Shown here in pieces: positions 1,433 to 31,404 of a DNA stretch of 31,404 bases. Below the pieces are notes generated by a model. The model was not told the DNA's origin. It saw only the letters and a list, made by a program, of their open reading frames with translations, and did no database searches. Origin of the DNA: Candidatus Hydrogenedentota bacterium (GTDB lineage Bacteria; Hydrogenedentota; Hydrogenedentia; Hydrogenedentales; SLHB01); contig JARKSN010000314.1 of assembly GCA_029974275.1 (NCBI GenBank), positions 1 to 31,404 of the forward strand. Reading direction: 5' to 3'. Within the stretch, counting starts at the first letter, position 1, and every line of letters starts with the position of its first letter. The position numbers and the translations under genes are program-made.

Positions 1433-1518
1433 GCCGGAGTGGTGAAATGGCAGACACGCATGGTTCAGGTCCATGTACGCGCAAGCGTGTGGGGGTTCAA
1501 GTCCCTTCTCCGGCACCA
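1433..1518 (+). tRNA. tRNA-Leu (anticodon CAG)
   Basis: Acceptor stem GCCGGAG/CTCCGGC followed by ACCA, D-loop TGGTGAAATGGCAGAC, anticodon arm CATGG-TTCAGGT-CCATG, long variable arm, T-loop GTTCAAGTC. Confidence 0.97.
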
Positions 1519-1580
1519 TCAACAACGTCTTCTCTAACAAGAGGTTTCGGCAAAAACGCGGCGCCGCTCTTCCACTCGTT
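1461..1580 (+). repeat. attL direct repeat (tRNA 3' part plus 62 bp downstream)
   Basis: Matches 5620-5739 at 118/120 positions; mismatches at 1493G/5652A and 1562C/5721A. Confidence 0.95.
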
Positions 1581-1600
1581 CCCCTTCTTGCGCATAGCAT

Positions 1601-1630
1601 TTGTGCCCGAATTGTGCCCAGATTGTGCCC
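1601..1630 (+). repeat. Three TTGTGCCC repeats with 11-bp period, putative integrase arm-type sites
   Basis: Copies at 1601-1608, 1612-1619 and 1623-1630. The same motif recurs at 5497-5515 near the other end of the element. Confidence 0.75.
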
Positions 1631-1663
1631 TGCCCCGCGAACGAACAATCGAGGTTTCGCGGC

Positions 1664-2737
1664 ATGGCAAGTCTCTACAGGCGCGGGAAAACGTGGTGGA
1701 TAAAAATTTCCGACAAGGGCGTTGTCCGGCGATTTTCACTTCGCACAAGGGATGCTGGCCTTGCCCGGCGGCTCTTGACCGATATCGAATATGCGGTGAG
1801 CATGCAACGGATTTCCGAACGCATTGGCCGATTTCCTCTAAACGAAACGGTCTCGCCTTCAACCCCTACTCCGAACACGTCGCCGCGCGAACAAGTAACG
1901 GCTGTTCAGGCATGGGGCGAATACACTCAGTGGGCCACGGGCAATCTTCGGCCTGCTTCCCTGAATAGAGTCAAAGTTTCGTGGGCAGTATTCCAGGAAA
2001 GATTCCCCACAAAATACATTGCCGACATAAACCCTTCCCGCTTGGAAGAATTCAAAGCGGCACTTGCGAAGGAAGGATTCAAACCCAAGACCGTTGCCGG
2101 GCGACTGGGCGATATTGCGGCGATTCTAGGCCGCATGACGCGCTTAGGATTGCTGGACGTAAATCCTGCAAAAGGAGTCCGGCTTCCCGAGGTCCCTAAA
2201 CGCCCGCCGCGATTTCTCACCGAAGAACAGGCGGACGCCCTTCTCGCGGCGGCGCACGCCCACAGTCAAGACGTGTTCCTGTTTTGTGCTCTTTGTCTGT
2301 ACGCTGGACTTCGCAAGAACGAGGCGATCAACGCGCGTTGGGAGTGGGTAGACTGGACCGCCCGAACGCTTACCGTCCAACCCGGCGAGTGTTTTCTTCT
2401 CAAGGACAGAGATACCCGCACCATTCCCCTGTCCGACCGACTCGCGGCGATCTTGACCGATTACAGGAAGCCCGAGGGATATATTCTCGCCCCCGGCAAT
2501 GCACCCGTCGCCGGGAGACAATATAGAGTTCGTGGTCAGAGAGCCTTCGAAGCCGTCACGTGCAAGGCGGGCGTGCCGTGGTGCACGCCGCACACGCTCC
2601 GTCATACCTTTGCGTCCAGGCTTGCGCAACGCGGCGTGTCTCTGTTCAAGATTCAGACTTGGCTCGGCCACTCGGACAGTTCCACCACGCAAATTTACGC
2701 GCACCTCGCCGCTTACGACGCCGACGTGAATGCGTGA
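1664..2737 (+). CDS. int: Tyrosine recombinase / phage integrase
   Basis: Catalytic residues present: R (AGLRKNE), HTLRH, LGH and Y (TQIYAH). N-terminal arm-binding-like MASLYRRGKTWW. GAGG RBS before 1664. Confidence 0.95.
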   Translation: MASLYRRGKTWWIKISDKGVVRRFSLRTRDAGLARRLLTDIEYAVSMQRISERIGRFPLNETVSPSTPTPNTSPREQVTAVQAWGEYTQWATGNLRPASLNRVKVSWAVFQERFPTKYIADINPSRLEEFKAALAKEGFKPKTVAGRLGDIAAILGRMTRLGLLDVNPAKGVRLPEVPKRPPRFLTEEQADALLAAAHAHSQDVFLFCALCLYAGLRKNEAINARWEWVDWTARTLTVQPGECFLLKDRDTRTIPLSDRLAAILTDYRKPEGYILAPGNAPVAGRQYRVRGQRAFEAVTCKAGVPWCTPHTLRHTFASRLAQRGVSLFKIQTWLGHSDSSTTQIYAHLAAYDADVNA

Positions 2738-3253
2738 TTACCGCGTCCAGATTTCTCGGCACGGGGGGAGGCTTTTCAGCGGCACGCACACGCTCAGCGT
2801 CGAATACGCGCCGTTGTCGGCCCGCTTGACCGTGAACCTCGATACCCACGTCCGGCCCCGTTCGCGCCATGCGAGGCGCAATGCGTCCATCTGCCACGCG
2901 CGGGCCACGCCCTGGGGTTTCCAGTAGCACGTGAGCACGTCGGCCCGAGTCTTCTCAATCCATCCGGGCCACTCGCGCCCGTCGCGTCGAACGTGGAGGA
3001 ATTCAATCAGCATGTCGGCATGCGGGCGGTACCGCGTTTTCTCTTGCACTTTAACGACGGTCCCGCCTCGAAGGAAAAGCGTCCGGTCTATGCCCGCCTT
3101 TTGCTCGGGACTGTTGACCGGCGCAATGGCAATGCGTTCGAGGTCGGGGTAGAGACGGCGATACAGCCGCCCCCATACGCCCGCCTCGGCCTCGCGGTTC
3201 TCGCGGGCGAGGTATGCGCCGAAGTTATGAACAATCCGTTTGGCCGCGCTCAT
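2738..3253 (-). CDS. Hypothetical phage-type protein, possible PD-(D/E)XK nuclease
   Basis: 171-aa ORF with an AGGAA RBS and the pattern GID...VQEK...IE...GW...ADV. Its stop abuts the integrase stop. Confidence 0.6.
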   Translation of the reverse strand: MSAAKRIVHNFGAYLARENREAEAGVWGRLYRRLYPDLERIAIAPVNSPEQKAGIDRTLFLRGGTVVKVQEKTRYRPHADMLIEFLHVRRDGREWPGWIEKTRADVLTCYWKPQGVARAWQMDALRLAWRERGRTWVSRFTVKRADNGAYSTLSVCVPLKSLPPCREIWTR

Positions 3254-3300
3254 GCCTACGAATTCCTTTCCTGATTTCTTTGGATAAAATTCCTACGTCA

Positions 3301-3423
3301 CCTGAAGGGGGAGAGGGAATAAGCCGGAGTCTTCTCCGGCATTCCCTCCCTTTAGGGACTTCGGGTATCTTCGGGTCTTCCCGCCGCAAATAGATTCTCT
3401 AAGGGGGGTTTATTTGCGGCGGG
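3301..3423. other. Two adjacent long inverted repeats, candidate replication origin or structured RNA
   Basis: Hairpin 3301-3356 (GAGGGAAT..GCCGGAG/CTCCGGC ATTCCCTC) and hairpin 3380-3423 (CCCGCCGCAAATA/TATTTGCGGCGGG), separated by two CTTCGGGT copies. Confidence 0.5.
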
Positions 3424-3445
3424 CCATAAACGAAGAGATTCGTGG

Positions 3446-4967
3446 TCAAAAAGGAACATCTTTGGCGGGGACGATCGTTTGGCGATCCTTGCCGTTGACG
3501 CGCTCGATTTCCTCTCGAATCTCGCCTTGCTGGATTGCCAGTCCGATCGCCTTGTCAACGTCTGAAGCCGTCGGCCATTTGTGGAGCCTTCCGATTGCGT
3601 CGGAGAGGTCTTTTCCTACGCCTTGTCGCCGAGAAATACTGTACCGGGTTGGTTTTGTGGACGGGTTTTCGGTCAACCACTCGACAATCGAGGGTATCAG
3701 CGCCTTGTGGTCTCGCGTTGACTCAACCTGCGCCAGCGCGCCGCCGTGGACTCGCTCGAAAGTGAGGGCGTCGGTCGAAGGGTGATTCGAATTCTTTACG
3801 ACGCTCACCGTCACTACGTCTGGATAATTTTCGGCGTCGCGGCGCGTTAAATGAACAATCCACCGGGACGCGCACGCGAGTGAGGAAGCGCCGCGCGCCG
3901 AGTGTTGGGTTGCCTCGCCCGCGCGTCCTTTCGACGAATGGTGCACGAGCAGTATGGCGGTCTCTGTTTCACTGGCAAGCCGCGCAAGCGCCCCGGCCAC
4001 GGCGGCCATTTCGGAGTTCGAGTTTTCGTCCTTGAGCACCGCCGCGTTCGCCAACGGATCGATAATCACAAGGGAGGGCTTTTCGGCTCGCATGCGGCGC
4101 TTCAACGTTCGAAACTCGGCGGTCGCCTCAACGCCACGTTCGCCCGCCACAAACAGTGCGGACGGTTCGCGCCGGAACACGAGGCGCTTGTCCCTCAGCG
4201 CGGCCTCGATTTCCCCCCAAGGGATTTTGCAAGCCTCCGAAATGGCTTGCAATCGAAAGCGTAAAATCGCGAAAGAATCCTCGTACGAGTAGACTAGCAC
4301 ACTCCCGCGTTCGCGCGGAGTGAAAGCCGGGAACACGGCGCGGCCCGTGGAGACGGAGACCGCGAGACAGGTAACTTTTAGAAATTCCGGACTCGCCGAG
4401 AACGAGACCCAGAATTCCCGGAATCGGACCGTTGGAAAAAACCGGCGCGGGCGGCGCGGACGCCCCGAGAATGTCCCCGTCAAGATCGCCGTCCACGAGA
4501 GCATGTCTCGCTTCGAATCGCGCGAAAGCCTCGGCGGCTTCTTCCGGGGAACCGTTGCGCATGCGTTCCGAGGTATCCGCCCAGTCGCGGCGTCGATACT
4601 CGGCGCGAAGGGCGTCCGCACACCGCTCCGGATTGATTGTTGGGTGCTCCGAGCGGACTTCCATGAGATAGGAAGCCTCGGCCACGTCGGCAAGGCCGAG
4701 GGTCTGCAGTTCCGTGTAGATTGCGCAAGCCTCAACCGGCTCTTTACGGTCCACAAGCGAACGTACAGCCTCGGCCACGGCCCCGCTCTGTTCGTCGGGC
4801 CACACAGCGTCCGGCAATTCCGCCACGGCTCGAATGCACTCCTGGTCCGAATCCATGACGCCGGAAAGCAACGCCCGCGCGGTTTGGTGCGCGGCGTCGC
4901 TCGCGGGATGATACGGGCGATCCTCGATTTTTCCCGGCGAGGGGAGCAGACTCAGGGAAACGCTCAT
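3446..4967 (-). pseudogene. DnaB-N-like plus AAA_25/RepA-type helicase, frameshifted at about 4370
   Basis: The frame starting at 4967 (ATGA overlap with the alpA stop) gives a DnaB-N-like helical domain and Walker A GESGISKS. The +1 frame continues LAVSVSTG, YSYED, Walker B LVIIDP, ILLVHHSSKG and RGASSL to the stop at 3446. Confidence 0.8.
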
Positions 4968-17977: not shown

Positions 17978-18895
17978 ATGCGCATCCTTATTGCCGAAGA
18001 CGACGCAGTATCGCGCCGGATGCTTCAAGCACAGTTGGAACGGTGGGGACATGAGGTGATCGTCACCTCGGACGGAGCCCAGGCGTTGAGCGCCTTATCC
18101 TGTCCCGATTCACCTCGTTTGGCCATTTTGGACTGGATCATGCCGGGTTTGGATGGCTTGGGCGTGACCAAGCGCGTTCGGGAGATGCCGGATCGTCCTC
18201 TTACGTACATTCTATTGTTGACGTCAAAGGACCAGAAGGAGGACATTGTCAGCGCGCTGGATTCCGGCGCGGACGATTACCTCGTCAAGCCATACGACGC
18301 CGAGGAGCTTAGGAGCCGCATCGGCGCCGGGTTGCGCATTCTTGGCCTCCAAGAACAGCTCGAACGCTTGAACCAACAATTGGCCGAGCAAGCGCGGACG
18401 GATTACCTCACCCAACTTCCCAATAGGCGCGCCGTGTTGGAACATCTCGCGTCTGAACTGGGGCGGTGCGCCCGTGTCGGAACCCCTTTGCTGGTCATGA
18501 TGGTCGACATTGATTATTTCAAGCGAATCAACGACACCCATGGGCATGCAGCGGGGGACAGCGTTCTGACCGAAGTGGCGCGCCGGTTGACGACGCACGT
18601 GCGGCTGTACGACGCCGTCGGAAGAATGGGAGGAGAGGAATTTTTGATCGTCGTGCCCGATATCGCCCTGGAACAGGCAGCGGCCACGGCCGATCGTATC
18701 CGGCAAACTCTTTCCGACACGCCTATCCCTCTTGACGGCACGGAGTTGCACATTACGGCAAGCATTGGGGTCGCATGGGCGCATCCGGATGATTCCGGGG
18801 CGTTCATCGCCGATCTGCTTATCCGAACGGCAGATGCGCAGCTCTATCAAGCCAAGACAAGCGGACGGAACCGGGTCTGCGTCACTCAGGTTTGA
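17978..18895 (+). CDS. Response-regulator diguanylate cyclase (REC-GGDEF)
   Basis: [43 protein letters not shown]-site RLYD, GGEEF. GGGGAG RBS. Confidence 0.94.
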
Positions 18896-19694
18896 CGCAG
18901 TCAAAAAGCGAGTTGTCCTTGGGCCCAAACCAGCCAAGGGCGTGCGCGCTGTTGCGCTCGCCGTAGATATTCGCGGTCGGCGTCCAGGTAAACTTCTCGG
19001 AAGTCACGTGCCCGTCGCACCACAACACGTTCACGCGGCCATTGTGCCGAAAATGCAGACTCGGCGAAGCATATCCCCAATCCGGATTTCCATGGGGATG
19101 GTCCGGCGTCACGAAATAGGGCGGCTCGGCGAAACTATATTCAATGATCAACCCATCTTGAGCCATCGCCGTGTCGGTGAACATAATCGTCTCTGTTGGC
19201 TTGCGGAGCCGGACGTCGCGCGTGGTCATGATCGAAGCCAACGGTCTGGGACGGAGATAGTCCGTTCCCCCTACGTACGCGGCATTGTAGCCGTAGCCGC
19301 CCGTCCCCGCTTCAAACGCCGTCATTCCGTTCACCTCGCGTTGGAACTCGGTGAATTCCGGACATTCCTTCACGCGGCGGTCCGGCAGGTATTCGGCCAG
19401 CGGCCCCTTGCCGGGGTCGAAGGGACTGTCCGGCGTCTCGCGCGCCCCATGCCAGCGCACGAGGCCGCCTCCAGGCGAATCGATATCCGGAGCGGCTGGG
19501 CAGAAAAAACCTTTGTTTTCGTCGGCATACATCCGGTTCGCCAAAAAAAGTTGCCGCAGGTTGTTCACGCATTGCATCGACCGGGCCTTGGCGCGAGCCC
19601 TGTTCAATGCAGGCAAGAGCAGCGATGCCAAAATGCCGATGATGGCGATCACGACGAGCAATTCAATCAACGTGAAGCCGTTTCGCGTCCTCAT
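18882..19694 (-). CDS. Prepilin-type N-terminal / DUF1559 / H-X9-DG protein
   Basis: [22 protein letters not shown]-terminal [17 protein letters not shown] overlap with the upstream gene. Confidence 0.9.
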
Positions 19695-21886
19695 GCCCGT
19701 TTCCTCGAATTCCTGCGTGTGCGTGCAAGCGCCCGGCATCCCAGCCATGCCATCGCGGGCGCGATCAGCGCCGGAACTGCGGCAAGGGGAAGGGAATCGT
19801 AATAGCCCGCCGCGAGCGTCGTCGAATGGATGTATCGCGTCTGCGCCGCATCCTCAAAAACATGGATCTGAAAAAAATCGCGCAGGTTGGGCGCGGAAAT
19901 CGTCAGAAACGCTTGTCCTCCCGAGACCATGATCTGGTGTCCCGGCTGGGAAAGGTCCGCGTCGCCCGACGTGATGGCCGCTTCCGTCACGCTGACCGTC
20001 AACAACGTTCCGTCGGGAATGGGATTTCCCATGGCGTCATGCAGCGGCGTGCTCTGAACCTCCACCTCGACCGGAGCCTCGCCCTGAGGTGGTCCTGCGA
20101 TGGTCCAGTAAATGGCCGGAGCCGGAGGGCCCGGCACGAATAGATACAGCAGTTCCCCGTAGGCATCGCCTTGAACGCTTGCCGCGCGCACTATCGCCGC
20201 GCCCGCTTCACGCGCGGGTTGAACGATGAACGAAATCACTCCGTCAAGCACAGCGACCTGTATGCCTGGCGTGACGGCGTCGCGATCGGCGCTTACGATG
20301 GAACCATGCGAAGTGGAGACCGTGATGAGCGTGCCATCGGCCGCGGCATGGTCCTGAGCATCCACGATGGTCCCGCTGGTCACGCGCACCGTATTCGCCG
20401 GATTCGCAATGCACTGGTTAAACGGTTCCGCCGTCAGGGCGATAGGGCCGTGCGCCCCCTCGCTCGTATGCTCGTCGCCTGCGCCCGCGGGCGCGGCAAG
20501 GAGAAACGTTCCGGGATACCGGGTCCGGAACGTCACCCGGTTCACGGCCGCGTTGCACTCGATAGAGGAAAGGCCATCCTGGACATACGCGTGATTATGC
20601 AATCGGTACGGTTGAAGGGCGCTTTCCTCCAGCCCTGCAATTTCAGCGGCTTGGTATTGCAGCGTGATCTCTGCGGGTTGAATGCCTTCCGCCACGAAAT
20701 CCGGCGTCGACGATTGGAACGTGCGCACGACGGCAGACGGCAGCAACGTCGCGTCCGGCAACGTCCCCTCTGGCGCGGGGGGCGCCAGGATATCCACGGT
20801 TGCATGAAACGCACGGGCTGGATTCGAACGCGCGGCGCCTGCAAAAAAACGGATTTGCGCGCCTCGATCGTCCCGCGCCGTTCCGAGCAACGCACCGTTG
20901 CCGCCTCCGCCTTCCGAAGCGGGGATTTCAAGCGGCAAAACGGTGTTTTCTCGCCGGAACGGGTCGGTTCCGGCCACGCGCGTCTCATACTCGTCCAGTA
21001 TCCCGTCGCCATCGCTGTCGATTTCCGGGGCGACATCCGCTACGGCGTCGATCTCCGGCGAGACAACGCCAAGGCCCGGCATGCTGCGGTCCACGAAGGA
21101 CGTCAAGCGGATAAAGTGAAAACGCGTCAACGACGCAGGGTTTCCGTCAACGTCGACGGCCCAAGCGATGTCAAAAGCATCGCCCCCGCCGCTGCGAGGC
21201 GAGAGCCCCACTTTCCAGGGATCGTCAGGGCGCACGTAATTGTCGAGATACGGCATCTGGGTCGGGGTCATTTCCGCGTACCCCCAGGCGTACTCGAGGG
21301 CATCGTTTGAAGGGTCTGCGTCGAGCGCGTTTGGATTCGTGATATTGCCGCCCAACAACGTGATCGGGTGGGGAGAAAGGTTGTCCAGCCCTGCTGGTTC
21401 CACGACTGCCGGGAATGGTGAATACGGAAACGCACGGCTGCCCGGTATGAGATACCAGGGATCGTCCGCCAAACCGTTTCCGTTCACGTCTTCGCTGATT
21501 TCGATGAGGGCAGGTTCCTGGAATTTCCGTTGCGGACTGCCTCCGTTCCAAAAACAATTCGAAAAAACAATGCAATCCAATCCCATCGGGTTGGCCGGAT
21601 CGTCCGTAACCGGCGTGGCGAAACGCAGCGTCAGCGACCCGCCGACTCCACCCAACGAAACGACCCCGCTGTTGTTGGGCAACGTCGGTCCCAGGCCCGT
21701 CGGAGGCCCCAATGTCTTGGAGGGATCTACATAGGGCGCGCTTGCCCCCGGCCCCGGACTGTACTGCATGACCGCGTCGGCCCATGGGTCTTCCGCACGC
21801 GCTGCTGCGGTCAAAAGGAAAAAAAACAGACATAGAAACGCCCAAGACGTTTGAAAAAAGGATTGTAATGAAGCCCTTTGGAACAT
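19691..21886 (-). CDS. Secreted multidomain cell-surface protein, putative cobalamin-binding N-domain, Ig-like repeats, C-terminal TM anchor
   Basis: Signal peptide (AARA-ED), VSLGGVGG...[23 protein letters not shown]...[21 protein letters not shown] Ca-loop, two DGTL(I/L)TVS repeats, hydrophobic plus basic tail. Confidence 0.75.
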
Positions 21887-21913
21887 GGAGCATTCTCCTG
21901 GACGCCTTGTCCC

Positions 21914-22936
21914 TTATCGCCGCAAACGCCTGATCGAAATTCCTGCAATGCCGCTGGCCAAGATCAACAGGCCCAACGCGCCGACTGCCGGAATGGGTTC
22001 GTATTCCTTTTGCGAACCATATGCGCTTACGGTGGGCGCAAACCCCTCCCAGACCGTGCTCACGATATACACCGTATTCGTGACGTGGTTGTAAAAAGGG
22101 ACATAACTGTTATAGCCGACCGGATCGGGGTCAAGCAGTCCCGCAATCTCGCCCGTCGTGCTGTCGATAAACTGCACCGAATTTTCCCATGTCCCGGCGA
22201 TGAGCGTGCCGTTCGACGATACCGCGCTTACGCCGCCCTTATTGTAGGTTCCAAGAACGGCGCCATCCATCCACGTGAGCGGAACATCGGCGGCAAACGC
22301 GTCCAAGAGCGCGCTGACGTGAAAAATCCGCACCTCGCCGGTGTCGCCGGCAGTGGCGTACAGCAGATCGCGACGCGGACTGAGCGCGAACGCCGCGCCA
22401 TAATGTCCCGGTTTATCAAGGACCTTGCGCAACACGGGAACGCCGCTCGAGAAATCGGCCAATTGAATTTCCGAAGATCCCCAAACAGGCGTCGCCTCGA
22501 CGAAAACGCGCGTTTCGTCCAAGAATACGGCCCAATAATTCGGCAGCCCCGTGATGCAGTCTGCCGCCGGGGAATAATCCTGCGGCGCAATCAGATCAAG
22601 CCGGAAAATCTTCCCATTGTATCCGCCGCCCAACAACGCCATCCGGCCGCTCGGCGAGACCGCGCAAAAGGTCGCGTCGCCTGCATATCCCGAGGCGATG
22701 TGTTGCCACCCATCCTCTCCCCGGCCCGTTTGAACCTTCACCTGGTCGCCGTCGTAGAGCACGAAGCGACCATCAGGCAGATTGCCCAGCATGACGCCAT
22801 ACCCAAACGCGGACGTGGGGAACTGGGAAAAAGCGTCGAAACCTGGCGGAGGCGTGGCCGGAAGCATATTGGCGATCGCCGTGGGCATGGCGGCTGCGAT
22901 CGAAACGATACATGCGATGAAATACAACCTTCTCAT
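21914..22936 (-). CDS. Secreted putative beta-propeller protein with IPTL-CTERM-like sorting tail
   Basis: Signal peptide MRRLYFIACIVSIAAA, repeated blade-like segments, C-terminal IPAVGALGLLILASGIAGISIRRLRR. GGGAGAG RBS. Confidence 0.7.
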   Translation of the reverse strand: MRRLYFIACIVSIAAAMPTAIANMLPATPPPGFDAFSQFPTSAFGYGVMLGNLPDGRFVLYDGDQVKVQTGRGEDGWQHIASGYAGDATFCAVSPSGRMALLGGGYNGKIFRLDLIAPQDYSPAADCITGLPNYWAVFLDETRVFVEATPVWGSSEIQLADFSSGVPVLRKVLDKPGHYGAAFALSPRRDLLYATAGDTGEVRIFHVSALLDAFAADVPLTWMDGAVLGTYNKGGVSAVSSNGTLIAGTWENSVQFIDSTTGEIAGLLDPDPVGYNSYVPFYNHVTNTVYIVSTVWEGFAPTVSAYGSQKEYEPIPAVGALGLLILASGIAGISIRRLRR

Positions 22937-23014
22937 GCGAGTTCTCTCCCTAATGCGCAAAAAAAATATGCGCGCTGTACATGGCGTTACATGATCCAAG
23001 GACATCGATGAGGG

Positions 23015-23053
23015 AAAAAAGCAGGAAGGTCTGAAACGAAGGGCCTGTCCTGC
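23015..23053 (-). terminator. Intrinsic terminator, riboswitch expression platform
   Basis: Minus strand GCAGGA-CAGGCC...GACCT-TCCTGC followed by TTTTTT, located between the aptamer and the first gene. Confidence 0.75.
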
Positions 23054-23096
23054 TGCAACCTTTCCCGCGAAGTTGCTGCACGGAATATCCTAGCTG

Positions 23097-23262
23097 GCGG
23101 GCAGGTCTTCTGGCTCCCGGTTCCTCCTACACTCCGCTCCTTCCCGCCCAATCGGGCAGTGGCTTGTGCGGATTTCGTCCCCGGTTACAGCAGCGCGACT
23201 GCGACGGACTCTCACCGTGCTTCCCTTGGCCTACGCCAGCGCATCATCCGATTTGTCGGCTT
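23097..23262 (-). ncRNA. Cobalamin riboswitch
   Basis: Minus strand motifs in canonical order: AGGGAA (23226-23221), CGGTG, GCTGTAA, GCCACTG (23163-23157), GGGAAG, and B12 box AGCCAGAAGACCTGC (23115-23101). Ends are approximate. Confidence 0.95.
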
Positions 23263-23285
23263 TTCACCTCCTTTCTTCTTGCGAA

Positions 23286-23314
23286 AGTATATCCCCTCTC
23301 CCATATCCTGTCAA
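23286..23314 (-). promoter_or_regulatory. Sigma70 promoter of the riboswitch operon
   Basis: Minus strand TTGACA, 17 nt spacer, TATACT. Confidence 0.8.
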
Positions 23315-23412: not shown

Positions 23413-24510
23413 ATGAGAGACAAAGCCATGAGCAACGATGTCGAATACATGCGTCGAGCGCTGGCCTTGGCCGAAAAGGGGCGCGGGCGCACCAGTCCAA
23501 ACCCGATGGTCGGCGCGCTTCTTGTGCGCGACGGACGCATCATCGGCGAGGGGTGGCACGAGCGCGCGGGCGATCCGCACGCCGAGGTGAACGCCGTCAA
23601 TGCGGCAGGCGGCGATGTCGCCGGGGCGACGTTGTACGTGACGCTCGAGCCCTGTTCCCATGTCGGTCGGACGCCGCCTTGCGTGGACTTCTTGCTGGAT
23701 CGCCAATTGGCGCGTGTCGTCGTGGCCATGCACGATCCCAATCCCAAGGTTTGCGGCGAGGGCATTTTCAGGCTTCGCGCGGCGGGCGTCGACGTAGAGG
23801 TCGGCGTGCTCGAAGACGAGGCGCGTTGTCTCAACGAGTATTTCATCAAGTACATTACGACGAAAATGCCTTTTGTCATCGCAAAGTGCGGCATGTCTCT
23901 TGACGGCAAAATCGCCACGCGCACCGGCGACTCGCGCTGGGTCACCGGCGAGGAATCGCGGCGTATGGTTCACCGCCTGCGCAACGAAGTCGACGCGATC
24001 CTCGTCGGCAGTCGCACGGTCATGCTCGACGATCCCAGCCTCACAACCCGCCTCGAACGGGGCAAGGTCAAAGACCCCGTACGGGTCATTCTCGACGCCG
24101 ATTCCTATCTTGACGCCGATCGACGCGTGTTTCATCTGGAAGATAATGTGCCCACCCTCGTCGTTGTGCCGGACGACCGGCGCTTCGAAGGGCCTGCGGA
24201 GGTTGTGCGCGCGCCGTCCCGAAAGGGCGGCGTCGACCTTCGCCACCTCATGCGCGAACTTGCGGCGCGCGAGATCACGTCCGTGTTGATCGAAGGAGGG
24301 GGCACCACGCACGCCTCGGCCTTCGAGGAGGGCATTGTCGACAAGGTGATGTTTTTCATCGCGCCCAAAATCATCGGCGGTCGAGACGCCGTGACCGCTG
24401 TGGAAGGAGAAGGAATCGAACGCATGGCCGAGGCATTGCCGCTGGAACGCATGACGGCCCGTCCTGTCGGCGAGGACATTTTGGTCGAAGCCTATGTGAA
24501 GCGCGCGTGA
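23413..24510 (+). CDS. ribD: Bifunctional riboflavin deaminase/reductase (start 23413 or 23428)
   Basis: SPNPMVGA, HAEV, TLEPCSHVGRTPPC, SLDGKIAT, IEGG. Confidence 0.96.
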   Translation: MRDKAMSNDVEYMRRALALAEKGRGRTSPNPMVGALLVRDGRIIGEGWHERAGDPHAEVNAVNAAGGDVAGATLYVTLEPCSHVGRTPPCVDFLLDRQLARVVVAMHDPNPKVCGEGIFRLRAAGVDVEVGVLEDEARCLNEYFIKYITTKMPFVIAKCGMSLDGKIATRTGDSRWVTGEESRRMVHRLRNEVDAILVGSRTVMLDDPSLTTRLERGKVKDPVRVILDADSYLDADRRVFHLEDNVPTLVVVPDDRRFEGPAEVVRAPSRKGGVDLRHLMRELAAREITSVLIEGGGTTHASAFEEGIVDKVMFFIAPKIIGGRDAVTAVEGEGIERMAEALPLERMTARPVGEDILVEAYVKRA

Positions 24511-25139
24511 TGTTCACCGGAATTATCGAAGAGGTTGGCGCCGTGGCGCAACGGGCGGGATCGGATTTGGTCATCATGGCCAAGCGCGTTTTGGGCGATC
24601 TGCGCCTCGGCGACAGCGTTGCGGTGGAAGGCGTATGTCTGACGGTAACGGCGCTGCACGACGATCGCTTCGTGGCCCAGATGTCGCCGGAAACCCTCCA
24701 TCGCACGACGTTGGGACAACTCAAGAGCGGCAGCGCGGTCAATCTCGAACGCGCGATGACGATGGGCGGACGTTTCGGCGGCCACTTCGTGCTGGGGCAC
24801 GTGGACGGCGTCGGTCGCGTGGCGTCTATCCAGCCGCAAGGCGAATTTTCGCTGTGGCGGTTTCAAGCGCCCGGCGATGTCGCAAAATACATCATCCCCA
24901 AAGGATCGATCGCCGTCGACGGTATGAGCCTGACCGTCGTCGAACCCAGCGGCGACACATTCGGCGCAGCCATCATCCCGGCCACGATCAATGCGACCAC
25001 GCTCAAGGGGAAACGCGTCGGCGACGCCGTCAACCTCGAGGCCGACATGATCGGGAAGTATCTCCACCACTATATCAACGTTTCGAAGCAGGGCAACGGC
25101 GTCACCCTCGATTTCCTATCCAAGCACGGGTTTGCCTGA
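24510..25139 (+). CDS. ribE: Riboflavin synthase (alpha subunit)
   Basis: MFTGIIEE, GVCLT, VNLERA, GGHFVLGHVDG, KGSIAVDGMSLT. TGATG coupling with ribD. Confidence 0.96.
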   Translation: MFTGIIEEVGAVAQRAGSDLVIMAKRVLGDLRLGDSVAVEGVCLTVTALHDDRFVAQMSPETLHRTTLGQLKSGSAVNLERAMTMGGRFGGHFVLGHVDGVGRVASIQPQGEFSLWRFQAPGDVAKYIIPKGSIAVDGMSLTVVEPSGDTFGAAIIPATINATTLKGKRVGDAVNLEADMIGKYLHHYINVSKQGNGVTLDFLSKHGFA

Positions 25140-27169: not shown

Positions 27170-28261
27170 TCAGTTCGGGAACGGTCCTCCCTTGGACTGT
27201 ACGGCGTATGCCTTCCAGAGGTCATCGCCCACGCTGTTATATGGCGCGGAGCCTCCCACGAAATACGCGACGCCTTCGGTGCAGGGGAACTTGGCCTTGT
27301 AGCGGATGAATTCGACGTGGCCGTCCATATACAAACAGTTCAGTCCGCCCGGCACATGGTTGAACCGCGCCACAAAATCCGGAGAGGCGTCTCCCGGATC
27401 CGGAGCCGGAAACAGCCCCGTCTCCGTATTGGGCGCGCTGATGATGTCGAACATGATGGGGATCTGACTTTGCGCCAAATTGCTCGCGGCGGGATTGTTG
27501 ATGTCGGTGATCAGAAAACGTTCAATGCCTTCACGAACGCGATAGGTGATCTTGCCATTGCCCGATCCCCAGCAACGCTGATCCGTTTCCTCCAACGTGA
27601 ATTGAGTGATCGGTCCGCCCCAATTTACATCCGAATCCACCGTAAACGGAATCAGGGGCGGATCATACATGAGGCCAGGCATGCTACGAATGATGTAGAC
27701 CTCATAGTCGCGCTTATAGAGCCAGGAAAGGTGCTGGCCGGGATTGGCGGGGTCAAGGCCCGCCGTGCACGCCGTCGTGTCTGGCTGGGCCAACCACGCC
27801 AAATACGCGTACGAATTGGGGCCCAGCACGCAAATCATGCCTTCCTGTCTATCGCGATCCGTAACGCCCGCAGTGTTATATATCGTCTCGATCCGCTTCG
27901 ACAGATCTTCCTTTGTCGGGGCCGTTGCGTCTGAAGGACACAGCATGACGCCGGGGTCGGTCAAATATTCCGGATACAGCAACAACGGTTCCGGCGTCAT
28001 CAAATTCGCCAAACGATCGATGTTCAGAAAGCCTCCCGGCTTGCTTTCCATCGGAAACGCTACCGGCGGGAATTTGCCGCCTCGGTCTTCGCCCGCGTAC
28101 ATCTTAAATACCAACCCCATCTGCTTGAGGTTGTTTTGGCAGCTCGAGCGACGGGCGGCTTCGCGCGCTCGCGCCAGAGCGGGCAATAGAATAGCAGCTA
28201 GGATTCCGATTATGGCAATGACGACGAGCAACTCAATCAGGGTAAAGCCTTTCCTCTTCAT
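27170..28261 (-). CDS. DUF1559 prepilin-type N-terminal cleavage/methylation protein
   Basis: [89 protein letters not shown]. Confidence 0.92.
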
Positions 28262-28475
28262 GACACGCAACACTCCTTTCTGAATCTGACTTCGCCAAAA
28301 TAAAACTATGATTCCCACGCTTCACAAAATGACAAGACCACGTTTTCCCCTACAACGACGGAACGAAACCTTACGCCGTTCCCGCACGGAAGATGCAATT
28401 CGGAGGCTACCTCATCCCCCCTTCCCCATTCAACATTTCCATTTTACGGCGTCACGCAGTCCACGTCTTGACTCT

Positions 28476-28504
28476 AGTCTATCACGAGGCGAGCAAAAAA
28501 GCAA
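28476..28504 (-). promoter_or_regulatory. Candidate sigma70 promoter of the DUF1559 gene
   Basis: Minus strand TTGCTT, 17 nt spacer, TAGACT with extended TG, in an AT-rich intergenic region. Confidence 0.45.
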
Positions 28505-28901
28505 AAGATTCGATAGCTGACAAGAGTAGAGACTTCGCGTATTTCAATGCCTTACCATTCAGCGGAAAAACAGTCTGTCTTTGTACTGCCATGCAATACA
28601 AAGCTAGGTTTTTTGTAGAGCATAAGGCGCTTATGTCGGTAAAAATGAAAAAAACTCTATATTAAATCAAAACAAGAACCCATTCCGATATGCGCCCCTC
28701 GGTTGTTCATTCACGAACATACGATTATTTTCGTTGATTTGCGGCGTCAAATCATGCCTCCTGGGATGTGGACGATCAGAGGCCTTCTTGCCACGACCAC
28801 AACACGATGGGATACGAACAGAGTGTATCCCAATCCGTTGGGATCGGTCGCCGACAGAGCATTCGAGACAGGAAAGGCGAGAGGAACATCCCCCCTAATC
28901 T

Positions 28902-29642
28902 CTACTCTCGCAAGTAGTCGCGGCTCTCTTTCAGATCGATGAAAGGGTCCCGTAGGTGCGTGTCGTGCTCGATAAAAATCCAAGCATCGTAACCAACGTC
29001 CTTGAGGGCCTTCATCACGGCAAGGTTGTCGAGGCCGATGTTGCCTTTGCCGAGACCGCAGAAGCGTCCGCCGGCAGAACGGCGTTCCTTGCCGGCCTCG
29101 GGATTCGTAACGAGCCAATCCTTGAGGTGGATCGAGGATAGCTTATCGGGATAGCGGCGCACGATTGCGACGGGATCGCCGTCCACTGCGGCCAAATGGG
29201 CCGTGTCCAGGACGAGGCCGCATTGAGGGCATTCCTTGAGGAAATGCTCCAGTTCGTCTTGCGTTTCGATGCGTGTGTCCATGTGGTTGTGCAAGGCGGC
29301 CGTGATGCCCCAGCGCATGCAGGCCTCGGCTTGGGCGCGGGCTTGGCGACAGAACGTGTCCATGTCGCGATCGCGTGAGACGGCCGTGACCCAGACATAG
29401 GCCTTGCCCAGGCCGGCGGTCCATTGAATGCTGGATTCCGGGTTGGGTCCCGCGCACGTGGCGAAATCCATGCCCAGGCGCTTGTATCGCGCCGCGCGAT
29501 GCAAAGCGTCGTCCGCGCTGACCGCATGCACGCGCTCGACGCCCTCAAACCCGATGCCTTTGAGCTTTGCCAACCGCTCCTCAATGTCGTAACAGGCCCC
29601 GTCCCACACGTTCATGCCGTAGTCGGCAACGCCAAATTTCAT
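28902..29642 (-). CDS. Sugar phosphate isomerase/epimerase (xylose-isomerase-like TIM barrel, IolE-like)
   Basis: ALHNHM, LDTAHL, IHLKD, LGKGNIG, WIFIEHD. GAGGAGGG RBS. Confidence 0.85.
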   Translation of the reverse strand: MKFGVADYGMNVWDGACYDIEERLAKLKGIGFEGVERVHAVSADDALHRAARYKRLGMDFATCAGPNPESSIQWTAGLGKAYVWVTAVSRDRDMDTFCRQARAQAEACMRWGITAALHNHMDTRIETQDELEHFLKECPQCGLVLDTAHLAAVDGDPVAIVRRYPDKLSSIHLKDWLVTNPEAGKERRSAGGRFCGLGKGNIGLDNLAVMKALKDVGYDAWIFIEHDTHLRDPFIDLKESRDYLRE

Positions 29643-29670
29643 TTCATTCCCTCCTCAAAAATTCAAGATT

Positions 29671-29787
29671 CACCACAAAGGCACAAAGGACACAGAGGAA
29701 CACAAAGAAGAGAAAGAAGCAGCTGTTTTTCTCTGCATCTCTGCGTCAAATTTTTCTTTCTCCCCTTAGCGCCGTTGCCTTTGTGTT
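29671..29787. repeat. REP-like imperfect palindromic element built of CACA(A/G)AG units
   Basis: CACAAAG/CACAGAG at 29674, 29682, 29691 and 29701, followed by complementary CTCTGC(G), CTTAGCG and CTTTGTG units. Confidence 0.65.
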
Positions 29788-29805
29788 AATTTCTAAATTG
29801 CGAAG

Positions 29806-31143
29806 CTAATCCTGCATGCCCGCAGGCGCCACCGGTTCCGCTTTGATCGCGGGGACGCCACGGTGTTGTGAGGCGATGGCCAGCGCGCTTTCCCACATGA
29901 CCTTTGCCTGGAAATGATCGCCGTTGTGCATCGCGGCGTACCCGCCGCTGATGCGCTTCTTGAACTCCTCCAGCCATGCCGGGGTCGGAATGCTCTGGAA
30001 GACAAAGGACTCCTGGTACTCCAGCAATACTTCCATGCAGGCCGCATAGGCTGCCAGCGCCTCATATTGCATGCGCGGCAAGATTGGGCGACGCTCCGCA
30101 AGACTGGGCAGCACAGGGAAAGGCGCGTGGGGCTCTTTTTGATACCAATAGACCACGCTCGAATAATCGTTCTCAAAATCGTTGGCGTGGCCGTGCTCGA
30201 TGGTCATCCGGATCGATTCGCCGAAGCGAATCGGATCGTTCAGGTACCAGCGGTACATCGCGTTCATGCCGCGAAACGTATCGCCGCCTTTGTTCTCGAT
30301 GAGATGAAACCCGGTGTACGGTCCCGCATACTCCGTGGCTGGACACGCGCCGCCGCCGAAGACTTCCTCCGAACCGGTGCCGTGAATCGACGGCGGCCAC
30401 GTGTCGCCATCGATGAAGATCATGTCGTCGCCTTCGCCGTACCAACCGCCCTGGATATTGTTGACCTGCAAATGAAGCCCCACGATGTGCCCTTCGCCCT
30501 TGGCTTCGAGCATGACGTAGTTGTCCTTGCCCGTGTCGTTGATGCGCGGGAACGCGCCCCGGTCTTTGAGGATGGGCGCATCGTACACGGTGGTGAGGCA
30601 TTCGCGCCGCCACTGCGCATGGAAACGGCCCAAGTCGTGCGGCAGTTTTCCATCGGGATAGCTCTCGTAATCGACGTGGCACCAGACTCGCCCGAGCGTG
30701 CCGCCGAACACACGCGCACTTTGGTTGACAAGTTCGATGCGGGCGCCGTTCTGGAAGGGCATCGGGAAATAGCAGTTGATGCCGTTGTTGACGCGGGGAA
30801 GGCCGCAACCGGGATTGATCGCCACCATCAACGAAGTGAACAAGCGCAGTGTGCAGTTGCTAATGCAAAAGAAATCGCCGAACGGCACTTCAACGCTTGG
30901 CGTTTCCTCGCCGTCCCAATACATGCGAATCACCGCATCGCGATAGTCCAGCGGATTCGGCTCGATAATCGTGAAATAGATGTGCGTGATCATCCCCGCG
31001 CCCGGAATTTCCGCCAATACGGAGGTCTGTCCGGGTTCAATGCGCCAGCAATCGTCGTTGCAGCCGTTTCGTTCCCACGTCGATTCGCGACGGCTGCGGC
31101 CGGAGGTTATGCGCGCAAGATGATCTCCTGAAACCCAGGCCAT
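29806..31143 (-). CDS. DUF2961 / glycoside hydrolase family 172-like protein
   Basis: GAGMITHIY, MYWDGEETPSVEVPFGDFF, NCYFPMPF, WYGEGDDMIFIDG, GTGSEE, IEHGHAN, SVVYWYQ. AAAGGAG RBS before 31143. Confidence 0.88.
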   Translation of the reverse strand: MAWVSGDHLARITSGRSRRESTWERNGCNDDCWRIEPGQTSVLAEIPGAGMITHIYFTIIEPNPLDYRDAVIRMYWDGEETPSVEVPFGDFFCISNCTLRLFTSLMVAINPGCGLPRVNNGINCYFPMPFQNGARIELVNQSARVFGGTLGRVWCHVDYESYPDGKLPHDLGRFHAQWRRECLTTVYDAPILKDRGAFPRINDTGKDNYVMLEAKGEGHIVGLHLQVNNIQGGWYGEGDDMIFIDGDTWPPSIHGTGSEEVFGGGACPATEYAGPYTGFHLIENKGGDTFRGMNAMYRWYLNDPIRFGESIRMTIEHGHANDFENDYSSVVYWYQKEPHAPFPVLPSLAERRPILPRMQYEALAAYAACMEVLLEYQESFVFQSIPTPAWLEEFKKRISGGYAAMHNGDHFQAKVMWESALAIASQHRGVPAIKAEPVAPAGMQD

Positions 31144-31224
31144 ACGGACTCCTTTCTGTTTGCAGGGGGCAATGCAGGCGGTCTGCGAAAAAAACGCATC
31201 GAACCCCAACCGGCATACGGGCGG

Positions 31225-31253
31225 AGGATACGCATTTGCTGTGTGCCCGTCAA
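31225..31253 (-). promoter_or_regulatory. Putative sigma70 promoter of the DUF2961 gene
   Basis: Minus strand TTGACG, 17 nt spacer, TATCCT. Confidence 0.6.
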
Positions 31254-31263
31254 CTTCCCGAGA

Positions 31264-31404
31264 CAGGGCTATCGCATTAAAAGTCACATAGCCAGGAGGA
31301 TTTCCTTGAGGTAGTCGTTGTCCCATCCGGCGATTTTTCGTTTTCCTTTGATGCTGGCTTTCTTGGTGGTGTTGGCTTTGAGCGCGTTCAGGGCGATTTT
31401 TCGG
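31264..31404 (-). mobile_element. ISAs1-family insertion sequence, right end (truncated by the window)
   Basis: Terminal IR CAGGGCTATCGCATTAA at 31264, immediately after the transposase stop. Confidence 0.82.
31284..31403 (-). CDS. ISAs1-family transposase, C-terminal fragment (5' part outside the window)
   Basis: Manual translation gives RKIALNALKANTTKKASIKGKRKIAGWDNDYLKEILLAM*, matching the ISAs1 C-terminal pattern R.IALN.L....SIK.KR..AGWD..YL. Confidence 0.85.
   Translation of the reverse strand, partial: RKIALNALKANTTKKASIKGKRKIAGWDNDYLKEILLAM

Follow-up and report, generated by a model that had tools for sequence, protein, structure and literature searches.

The window analysed here, 31,404 nucleotides from a Candidatus Hydrogenedentota bacterium (contig JARKSN010000314.1 of assembly GCA_029974275.1, positions 1 to 31,404 of the forward strand), carries on its minus strand a cobalamin (vitamin B12) riboswitch followed by three genes for predicted exported proteins, the last of which is a prepilin. 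The features of this operon, in the order in which they follow the promoter, are:

23286..23314, minus strand: sigma-70-type promoter-like site TTGACA-17-TATACT, predicted, 11/12 consensus matches
23083..23255, minus strand: cobalamin riboswitch aptamer RF00174, 91.1 bits, E 1.4e-21, matching the full-length model (1-189)
23055..23076, minus strand: hairpin 3' of the aptamer, predicted by folding, probable P13
23015..23053, minus strand: probable intrinsic terminator from folding, a G+C hairpin followed by U6
21914..22936, minus strand: gene 1, 340-residue predicted secreted protein, probable beta-propeller with an IPTL/PEP-CTERM-like C-terminal anchor
19691..21886, minus strand: gene 2, 731-residue predicted secreted protein with a BtuH-type domain, a TSP3-like repeat, a middle region and a C-terminal anchor
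21032..21790, minus strand: BtuH-type B12-binding domain, assigned by homology, about residues 33-285 of gene 2
18882..19694, minus strand: gene 3, 270-residue prepilin-type protein (DUF1559 / H-X9-DG) belonging to a clade linked to riboswitches, assigned by profile matches

A first-pass annotation of this DNA had proposed that the operon is a new system for B12 capture, and its description of the locus stands but for one correction. The tight linkage of the three genes, with a gap of 27 nucleotides between genes 1 and 2 and an ATGA overlap of genes 2 and 3, can be read directly in the sequence. The near-consensus promoter is likewise found where it had been placed (23314-23286), and is the best of four promoter-like sites, the average in shuffled sequences being 1.7. 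The aptamer clears the RF00174 gathering score of 31.5 bits by a wide margin in the covariance model search, and it is the only such match in the genome, a draft that is 100% complete and 3.6% contaminated. As stated in the annotation, none of the three proteins matches a family of TonB receptors, of ATP-binding cassette (ABC) or energy-coupling factor transporter components, or of enzymes.

We have studied the recurrence of this arrangement in two overlapping surveys. For gene 2, 55 loci were collected, mostly from Hydrogenedentota and planctomycetes, plus one Prevotella locus that consists of a riboswitch, a TonB receptor and a DUF5074 protein. Of the 50 loci tested for a switch, 44 have one upstream (3 of these score under the Rfam cut-off); no more than 2.1 kb of upstream DNA is available at the 6 misses, two of which show a truncated switch at the contig end. 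In six loci (L004-L007, L009, L010) the BtuH-like protein is fused in frame to the pilin via a membrane segment and a basic loop. For gene 3, a profile (A3) built from the pilin head, with the shared N-terminal helix excluded, was applied to 94 genomes of the phylum with completeness of at least 90%, and identified the pilin clade in 87 of them, with a single match in most, against 10-143 first-look candidates per genome. Switches were then called at the 88 pilin loci outside the genome of the window, with our own nhmmer profile (13 confirmed with Rfam) and with genome-wide Rfam matches. A switch lies upstream of the pilin at 67 of these loci, and at 59/59 of those with at least 5 kb of upstream DNA; all 21 loci without a switch have less than 4.5 kb to the contig end. 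The genes between switch and pilin are far less constant: BtuH-type genes are present at 54 loci, a propeller at 18 and BtuH-pilin fusions at 20, while at 19 the switch is followed immediately by the pilin, no binder being detected in the fetched stretch.

Among the seven genomes of the phylum without the pilin clade, four have a switch leading another prepilin, two a switch leading binders, and one has no switch match. In G051 and G052, which lack the clade pilin, the switch leads a sister-clade prepilin (hhalign E 8e-45). In G126 and G137 (L231:6379-7782 and L232:1565-2821) it leads a weakly related 420-residue DUF1559 pilin, the two being 69% identical to each other; since L231 combines tandem switches with a downstream gene resembling that of L182, the pilin seems to have been swapped at the same locus. 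In a planctomycete class (121 genomes) 41/42 strong and 17/21 weak clade matches lie under a switch. Of the first 20 switch-bearing genomes of this class without a clade match, 18 have a more distant pilin downstream, and the remaining 2 are represented by short contig ends holding BtuH-like genes; a TonB plug domain within 6 kb behind the switch was recognized by eye in 2/121 genomes (G231, G151). As a control we used 79 other prepilin loci from a metagenome scan, mostly generic prepilins (one of 80 rows was omitted). Only 3/79 have a switch (3/32 where at least 2.5 kb of upstream DNA is available); these three rank 1, 3 and 5 by likeness to the pilin clade, and the less similar loci with enough upstream DNA give 0/29. 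Judged from gene content, the near-constant unit is the riboswitch with the pilin, and the surface proteins are exchangeable accessories. The annotation had named the lack of a recurrent link to the riboswitch as refuting its reading, and this refutation clearly fails; because the surface proteins are interchangeable, the trio is one arrangement among several. Beyond the cassette the neighbours vary among related loci, with no conserved fourth gene.

Gene 3 gives three profile matches above cut-off, to the class III signal N_methyl (35.1 bits), to SBP_bac_10 (PF07596, 31.5 bits, residues 32-62 only) and to TIGR04294 (28.9 bits). In a structural comparison of its AlphaFold model (predicted local distance difference test score, pLDDT, 88) the 21 best matches are all pilins, the best with Z 5.6 over 121 aligned residues at a root-mean-square deviation of 3.4, and ComP ranks second with Z 4.8. 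A Foldseek search with the model returned no match at E 0.001, which says nothing on the novelty of the fold. In 48 sequences of the clade, drawn from two phyla, 36 columns are invariant, including E11 of the class III signal, and F7 is kept in at least 90%; conservation of the pilin head far exceeds that of the changing neighbours (propeller, DUF4465, two BtuH types). The genome of the window contains 22 prepilin-motif frames, 8 of them with the C-terminal H-X9-DG motif.

The correction concerns gene 2, which is related to known B12 proteins. Its sequence alone matches 8BLW_B (E 6e-12) and 7BIZ_A (E 6e-7) in the PDB, and its family profile matches the same chains with E values of 8.5e-31 and 5.3e-24, respectively. 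We take 7BIZ to be BtuH2 and 8BLW to be the H domain of BtuG1/BtuGH; in agreement with this assignment, an offset of 100 brings the residue numbers in the available parts of the BtuH papers into register with 7BIZ_A. According to the available part of one of these (PMC8941943), BtuH2 is a direct binder of B12, and efficient transport depends on it; the available part of another (PMC13616437) gives N399, E406, D522, S582 and E584 as the two-metal phosphate site of BtuH. By alignment the equivalents in gene 2 are N110, E124, E205, S276 and E278, so that all five are kept with one conservative swap, and the site is preserved across the family (N 44/44, E 44/44, D/E 43/44, S/T 44/44, E/D 43/44). 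Of the corrin contacts, F401 and L578 are kept and W577 and F334 are not; the region of Y510/W511/H476 aligns poorly. The remainder of the protein comprises the TSP3-like repeat and a hydrophobic-basic C-terminal tail; residues 289-699 have no sequence match in the PDB. On this homology the domain is quite likely to bind a cobamide, and gene 2 is, as far as its sequence tells, a member of the known BtuH-type binders and hence not novel. Since it has a C-terminal tail and no lipoprotein anchor, and its genome has no TonB receptor, we refer to a BtuH-type domain and not to a Bacteroides-style BtuH protein.

Gene 1 by itself has no Pfam or PDB match. The profile of its family (A1, 36 members) matches YVTN-type propellers (1L0Q, E 3.7e-7), and a beta-propeller is the probable fold; individual members contain an SBBP repeat (8), PEP-CTERM (5) or IPTL-CTERM (3). 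In a search for sorting motifs its own tail scores 11.8 bits, under the cut-off of 20.5, and 8/36 orthologues match one of the two CTERM motifs (PEP or IPTL) with E values no worse than 0.05. A single-sequence AlphaFold prediction (pLDDT 39) was left unused. Identification of gene 1 as BtuG was considered and rejected: 0/36 members of the family match DUF5074, and comparison of its profile with the DUF5074 protein of the Prevotella locus (L056) gave a probability of 0.7%. Its link to B12 is contextual. At six planctomycete loci its slot is taken by DUF4465, the family of BtuJ, a proven B12 binder according to the accessible part of PMC13398666. ESM Atlas queries gave generic or unnamed clusters only.

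The leader between the aptamer and gene 1 was studied by folding. We assume that the hairpin at 23055..23076 is P13, the kissing-loop partner of loop L5, as in known cobalamin switches; its loop motif recurs behind 44/79 riboswitch matches in relatives. A test in which L5 and L13 partners were swapped was uninformative because the loops hardly vary (the observed count was reached in 134/500 shuffles). With regard to the terminator of the first-pass annotation, folding does yield a hairpin followed by U6 at 23015..23053, the hairpin itself (23053-23021) having -11.0 kcal/mol and a long loop, but a consensus terminator scanner did not list it. In the free leader its stem has a pair probability of about 0.74, against 0.99 when the aptamer is held out, a shift that plausibly fits termination upon ligand binding, without proving switching. 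Taken as a whole, the leader folds no better than shuffled sequences (z 0.75).

The genomic context defines both the need for B12 and the routes by which it could enter. The genome encodes MetH and 18 matches to B12-binding domains, and the profile search of the genome found neither MetE nor CobS, so that the cell likely must import B12. An outer membrane is indicated by genes for BamA and a Kdo transferase. The complete draft has 0 matches to the TonB barrel (PF00593), plug (PF07715) and TonB_C (PF03544) profiles; the same search for a barrel was negative in 65/94 genomes of the phylum and in 34/50 of those in the gene 2 survey. The first-pass reading is to be refined in one respect: a BtuF/D/C-like ABC transporter is encoded on another contig (C60), unlinked to the operon and below the BtuF and BtuC cut-offs, with 36% identity to the riboswitch-led binding protein of a relative. 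Two genes upstream of this BtuF-like gene (L305:1967-3583, G000:C60) lies an outer-membrane barrel of the alginate-export type, possibly a passive channel. As for machinery, there are 8 secretin matches, a full type II secretion system, a cluster led by PilM that includes a PilQ-like secretin, an exosortase and 6 PilT-family ATPases; 5-10 of the latter occur in each of 53/53 genomes (this one and 52 relatives).

Other cobalamin switches of the phylum were examined at 58 further sites (40 plus 18 new). Among the first 40, the first gene belongs to the propeller family of gene 1 in 16, to a second anchored family in 6, to the large subunit of ribonucleotide reductase in 5, to BtuF/D/C-like ABC transporters in 3 and to the BtuH type in 3; there is one case each of NrdD, MetE, a cobU/cobT operon, a prepilin and a Tad pilus operon, and none is readable in 2. 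Repression by B12 commonly targets MetE and ribonucleotide reductases, so that the function of these switches looks ordinary. Over all sites the family of gene 1 is first behind 21/58 switches, and a TonB receptor behind 0/58; some of the BtuH-led sites probably represent the operon of the pilin itself, divided at a contig end. The second anchored family (450-480 residues, probably a propeller, with no clear Pfam family) stands first in L240, L242, L251, L264, L266 and L267. The Tad operon, a single case among the 58 switches, is found at L278:4500-19606 (G073:C1, about 2197000-2212105, minus strand), where a riboswitch of 76.9 bits precedes by about 160 nucleotides a Flp-like pilin and the whole operon (peptidase, CpaB, secretin, ATPase, TadB/C, TadG), which ends in a 1249-residue anchored surface protein. 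A TonB receptor two genes behind the cassette in L009/L146 was considered as BtuB and discarded: it has a PAS histidine kinase on one side and on the other a small periplasmic gene, after which comes a sensor-like gene, and presumably belongs to a signalling module.

These results can be interpreted in terms of B12 scavenging. That the operon serves the acquisition of B12 appears very probable, and that the pilin itself handles the vitamin is probable. As B12 is needed and no standard outer-membrane importer is detectable, the operon likely serves pilus-linked uptake of the vitamin. The specific proposal of a scavenging unit in which the pilin performs the outer-membrane step of BtuB seems to us evenly balanced between right and wrong, and a route through pilus and secretin falls slightly short of that. 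Cobalamin switches repress their own genes once B12 is bound. In the proposed sequence of events, repression would probably be exerted via the terminator, so that the operon is switched on by scarcity of B12. Genes 1 and 2, optional and exchangeable, would be exported, held by their C-terminal tails, and would trap and concentrate the cobamide. The pilin, once cut by the prepilin peptidase, would become a minor subunit of a retractile type IV pilus or pseudopilus; it would bind the cobamide with its enlarged head and carry it through a secretin into the periplasm. This part played by the pilin is the weakest of the scheme. The unlinked BtuF/D/C-like transporter would complete the import. The capture of B12 proposed in the first-pass annotation is partly supported, by a riboswitch link that recurs in two phyla and by the failure to detect a TonB receptor or TonB, with the refinement that the trio is not a fixed unit.

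Several observations weigh against this scheme. At the level of regulation, a strict terminator test is passed by 10/79 switches of relatives, compared with 1-4 in shuffles. At the level of the proteins, three corrin contacts of BtuH2 are changed in gene 2 (W577 to G, F334 to S, Q333 to A), gene 1 has no detectable homology to BtuG, and the match of the gene 3 model to the pilin fold is weak. No secretin or assembly gene is part of the recurrent cassette. At the level of genomes, genomes with the pilin are no poorer in TonB receptors: in the planctomycete class a plug domain occurs in 21/40 strong-clade genomes and in 34/81 others, counts that show no mutual exclusion of pilin and TonB receptors, and in the phylum of the window 25/25 genomes with a barrel over the cut-off carry the pilin, with a barrel in 0/7 pilin-less genomes. 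Finally, because the genomes are related and in draft form, the counts are not independent and the absences not proven.

The main alternative is that the pilin never enters a filament, and acts as an inner-membrane B12 binder that faces the periplasm and hands B12 to BtuF, the vitamin crossing the outer membrane passively via porins or idle secretins; the anchored binders may also stay in the inner membrane. Although we consider it unlikely, this reading draws on several data. The BtuH-pilin fusions at 20/88 loci, with their membrane segment and basic loop, place both heads in the periplasm at synthesis, the cassette has no assembly genes, and the alginate-export-type barrel near the BtuF-like gene would offer a passage; DUF1559 proteins of Tuwongella, moreover, fractionate with membranes, as reported in the accessible part of PMC8567305. 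On the other hand the class III cleavage signal (E11, F7) is conserved, and its retention even in the fusions speaks for processing and assembly; PilT-family ATPases are also expanded. Passive entry also meets the difficulty that B12 exceeds the size limit of general porins.

A role of the pilin as an adaptor of type II secretion, that is, a minor pseudopilin that exports the anchored binders without contact with B12, is in our opinion improbable. The position of the pilin directly after a BtuH-like gene, or fused to it, in most loci would be explained, and the genome encodes an exosortase as well as a full type II system. An adaptor, however, would hardly be expected alone behind the switch, as is the case at 19/88 loci and also in L058 and L062, an objection weakened by some pilin-alone genomes that have binders under a second switch; nor does it fit a pilin head far more conserved than its supposed clients. 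Marginally less probable still is that B12 starvation induces an adhesin pilus, with which the cell attaches to B12-producing neighbours while the binders harvest the vitamin for uptake by another route. The switch-led Tad/Flp operon of one relative (L263/L278) and the different DUF1559 pilin led by the switch in G126 and G137 are in line with this possibility; it is opposed by the failure to find any other outer-membrane route in the genome, and by a single-copy pilin whose invariant columns are more in keeping with one small, fixed ligand than with partner surfaces that vary. That ordinary surface proteins merely happen to lie behind a switch is very improbable: the abundance of DUF1559 pilins in this genome speaks for it, but the surveys (59/59 and 41/42 against 0/29 for less similar prepilins with enough upstream DNA) and the homology of gene 2 to BtuH contradict it.

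The surroundings of the operon were also inspected. Divergent from the B12 promoter are ribD and a lumazine-binding (riboflavin synthase) gene (23416-25139, plus strand), a neighbourhood that has no recurrence in related loci. At the other end, a response-regulator/GGDEF gene (17978-18895, plus strand) overlaps the end of the pilin gene tail-to-tail by 14 nucleotides, and the scanner listed no terminator at this overlap. A second DUF1559 prepilin, of 382 residues, is encoded within 27170-31326 (minus strand), downstream of DUF2961 and xylose-isomerase-like TIM barrel genes, a carbohydrate-type context that fits pilins specific for different cargoes. At 1433-4756 a tRNA, with an integrase and an AAA_25/DnaB-like gene behind it, marks a probable integrated element.

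If the pilus route were true, it would represent a new class of outer-membrane nutrient import, and a possible answer to the question of how outer-membrane bacteria without TonB receptors obtain a vitamin too large for porins. We tentatively extend this idea to a broader one, on which we would not insist: that the pilin clade is the receptor-carrier of a TonB-independent retractile-pilus/secretin route for B12, near-universal in the phylum and common in planctomycetes, that other DUF1559 pilins are cargo-specific uptake subunits replacing TonB-dependent receptors, and that the BtuH-pilin fusions are polyproteins cut by the prepilin peptidase. In any case a very large and unexplained prepilin family gains a member for which there is a named candidate ligand as well as a simple assay, and BtuH-type binders are extended beyond Bacteroidota with a different anchor.

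Among known systems the closest is the Btu relay of Bacteroides thetaiotaomicron, in which, according to the available parts of PMC8941943 and PMC13616437, BtuJ, BtuH, BtuK and BtuG work with BtuB and BtuFCD. Shared with it are the control by a cobalamin riboswitch, a BtuH-type domain predicted to be exported, a probable beta-propeller as partner, the use by relatives of DUF4465/BtuJ as an alternative first gene, and a patchy set of exchangeable accessory binders. Unlike in the relay, BtuB and TonB are not found in this genome, the binders have C-terminal IPTL/PEP-CTERM-like or dockerin-like tails and not a lipoprotein anchor, the BtuH domain is N-terminal, and the constant gene is a prepilin, which differs from the Bacteroides loci as described. 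With BtuH2 (7BIZ) and the BtuG1 H domain (8BLW), gene 2 shares homology over the full domain and the metal/phosphate site; it differs from BtuH2 in the loss of the corrin-contact aromatics W577 and F334, in its other flanking domains and anchor, and in the frequent fusion of its family to the pilin. With the DUF1559 (SBP_bac_10, PF07596) / H-X9-DG (TIGR04294) prepilins, gene 3 shares the class III signal, the DUF1559 start and the H-X9-DG motif, all above cut-off. That family is heavily expanded and without assigned function in the accessible part of PMC8567305, whereas the clade of gene 3 occurs mostly as a single copy, shows strong conservation and is coupled to cobalamin switches. Our literature search, whose coverage largely excluded subscription papers and supplements, found no link of DUF1559 or prepilins to cobalamin, and no pilus uptake route for a vitamin. 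The nearest functional parallel is ComP, a ligand-binding minor pilin in DNA uptake by type IV pili: the core pilin fold seems to be shared, by a weak match, and retraction ATPases and secretins are encoded in this genome as well, but the cargo proposed here is a small cofactor and the head of gene 3 is about twice as large.

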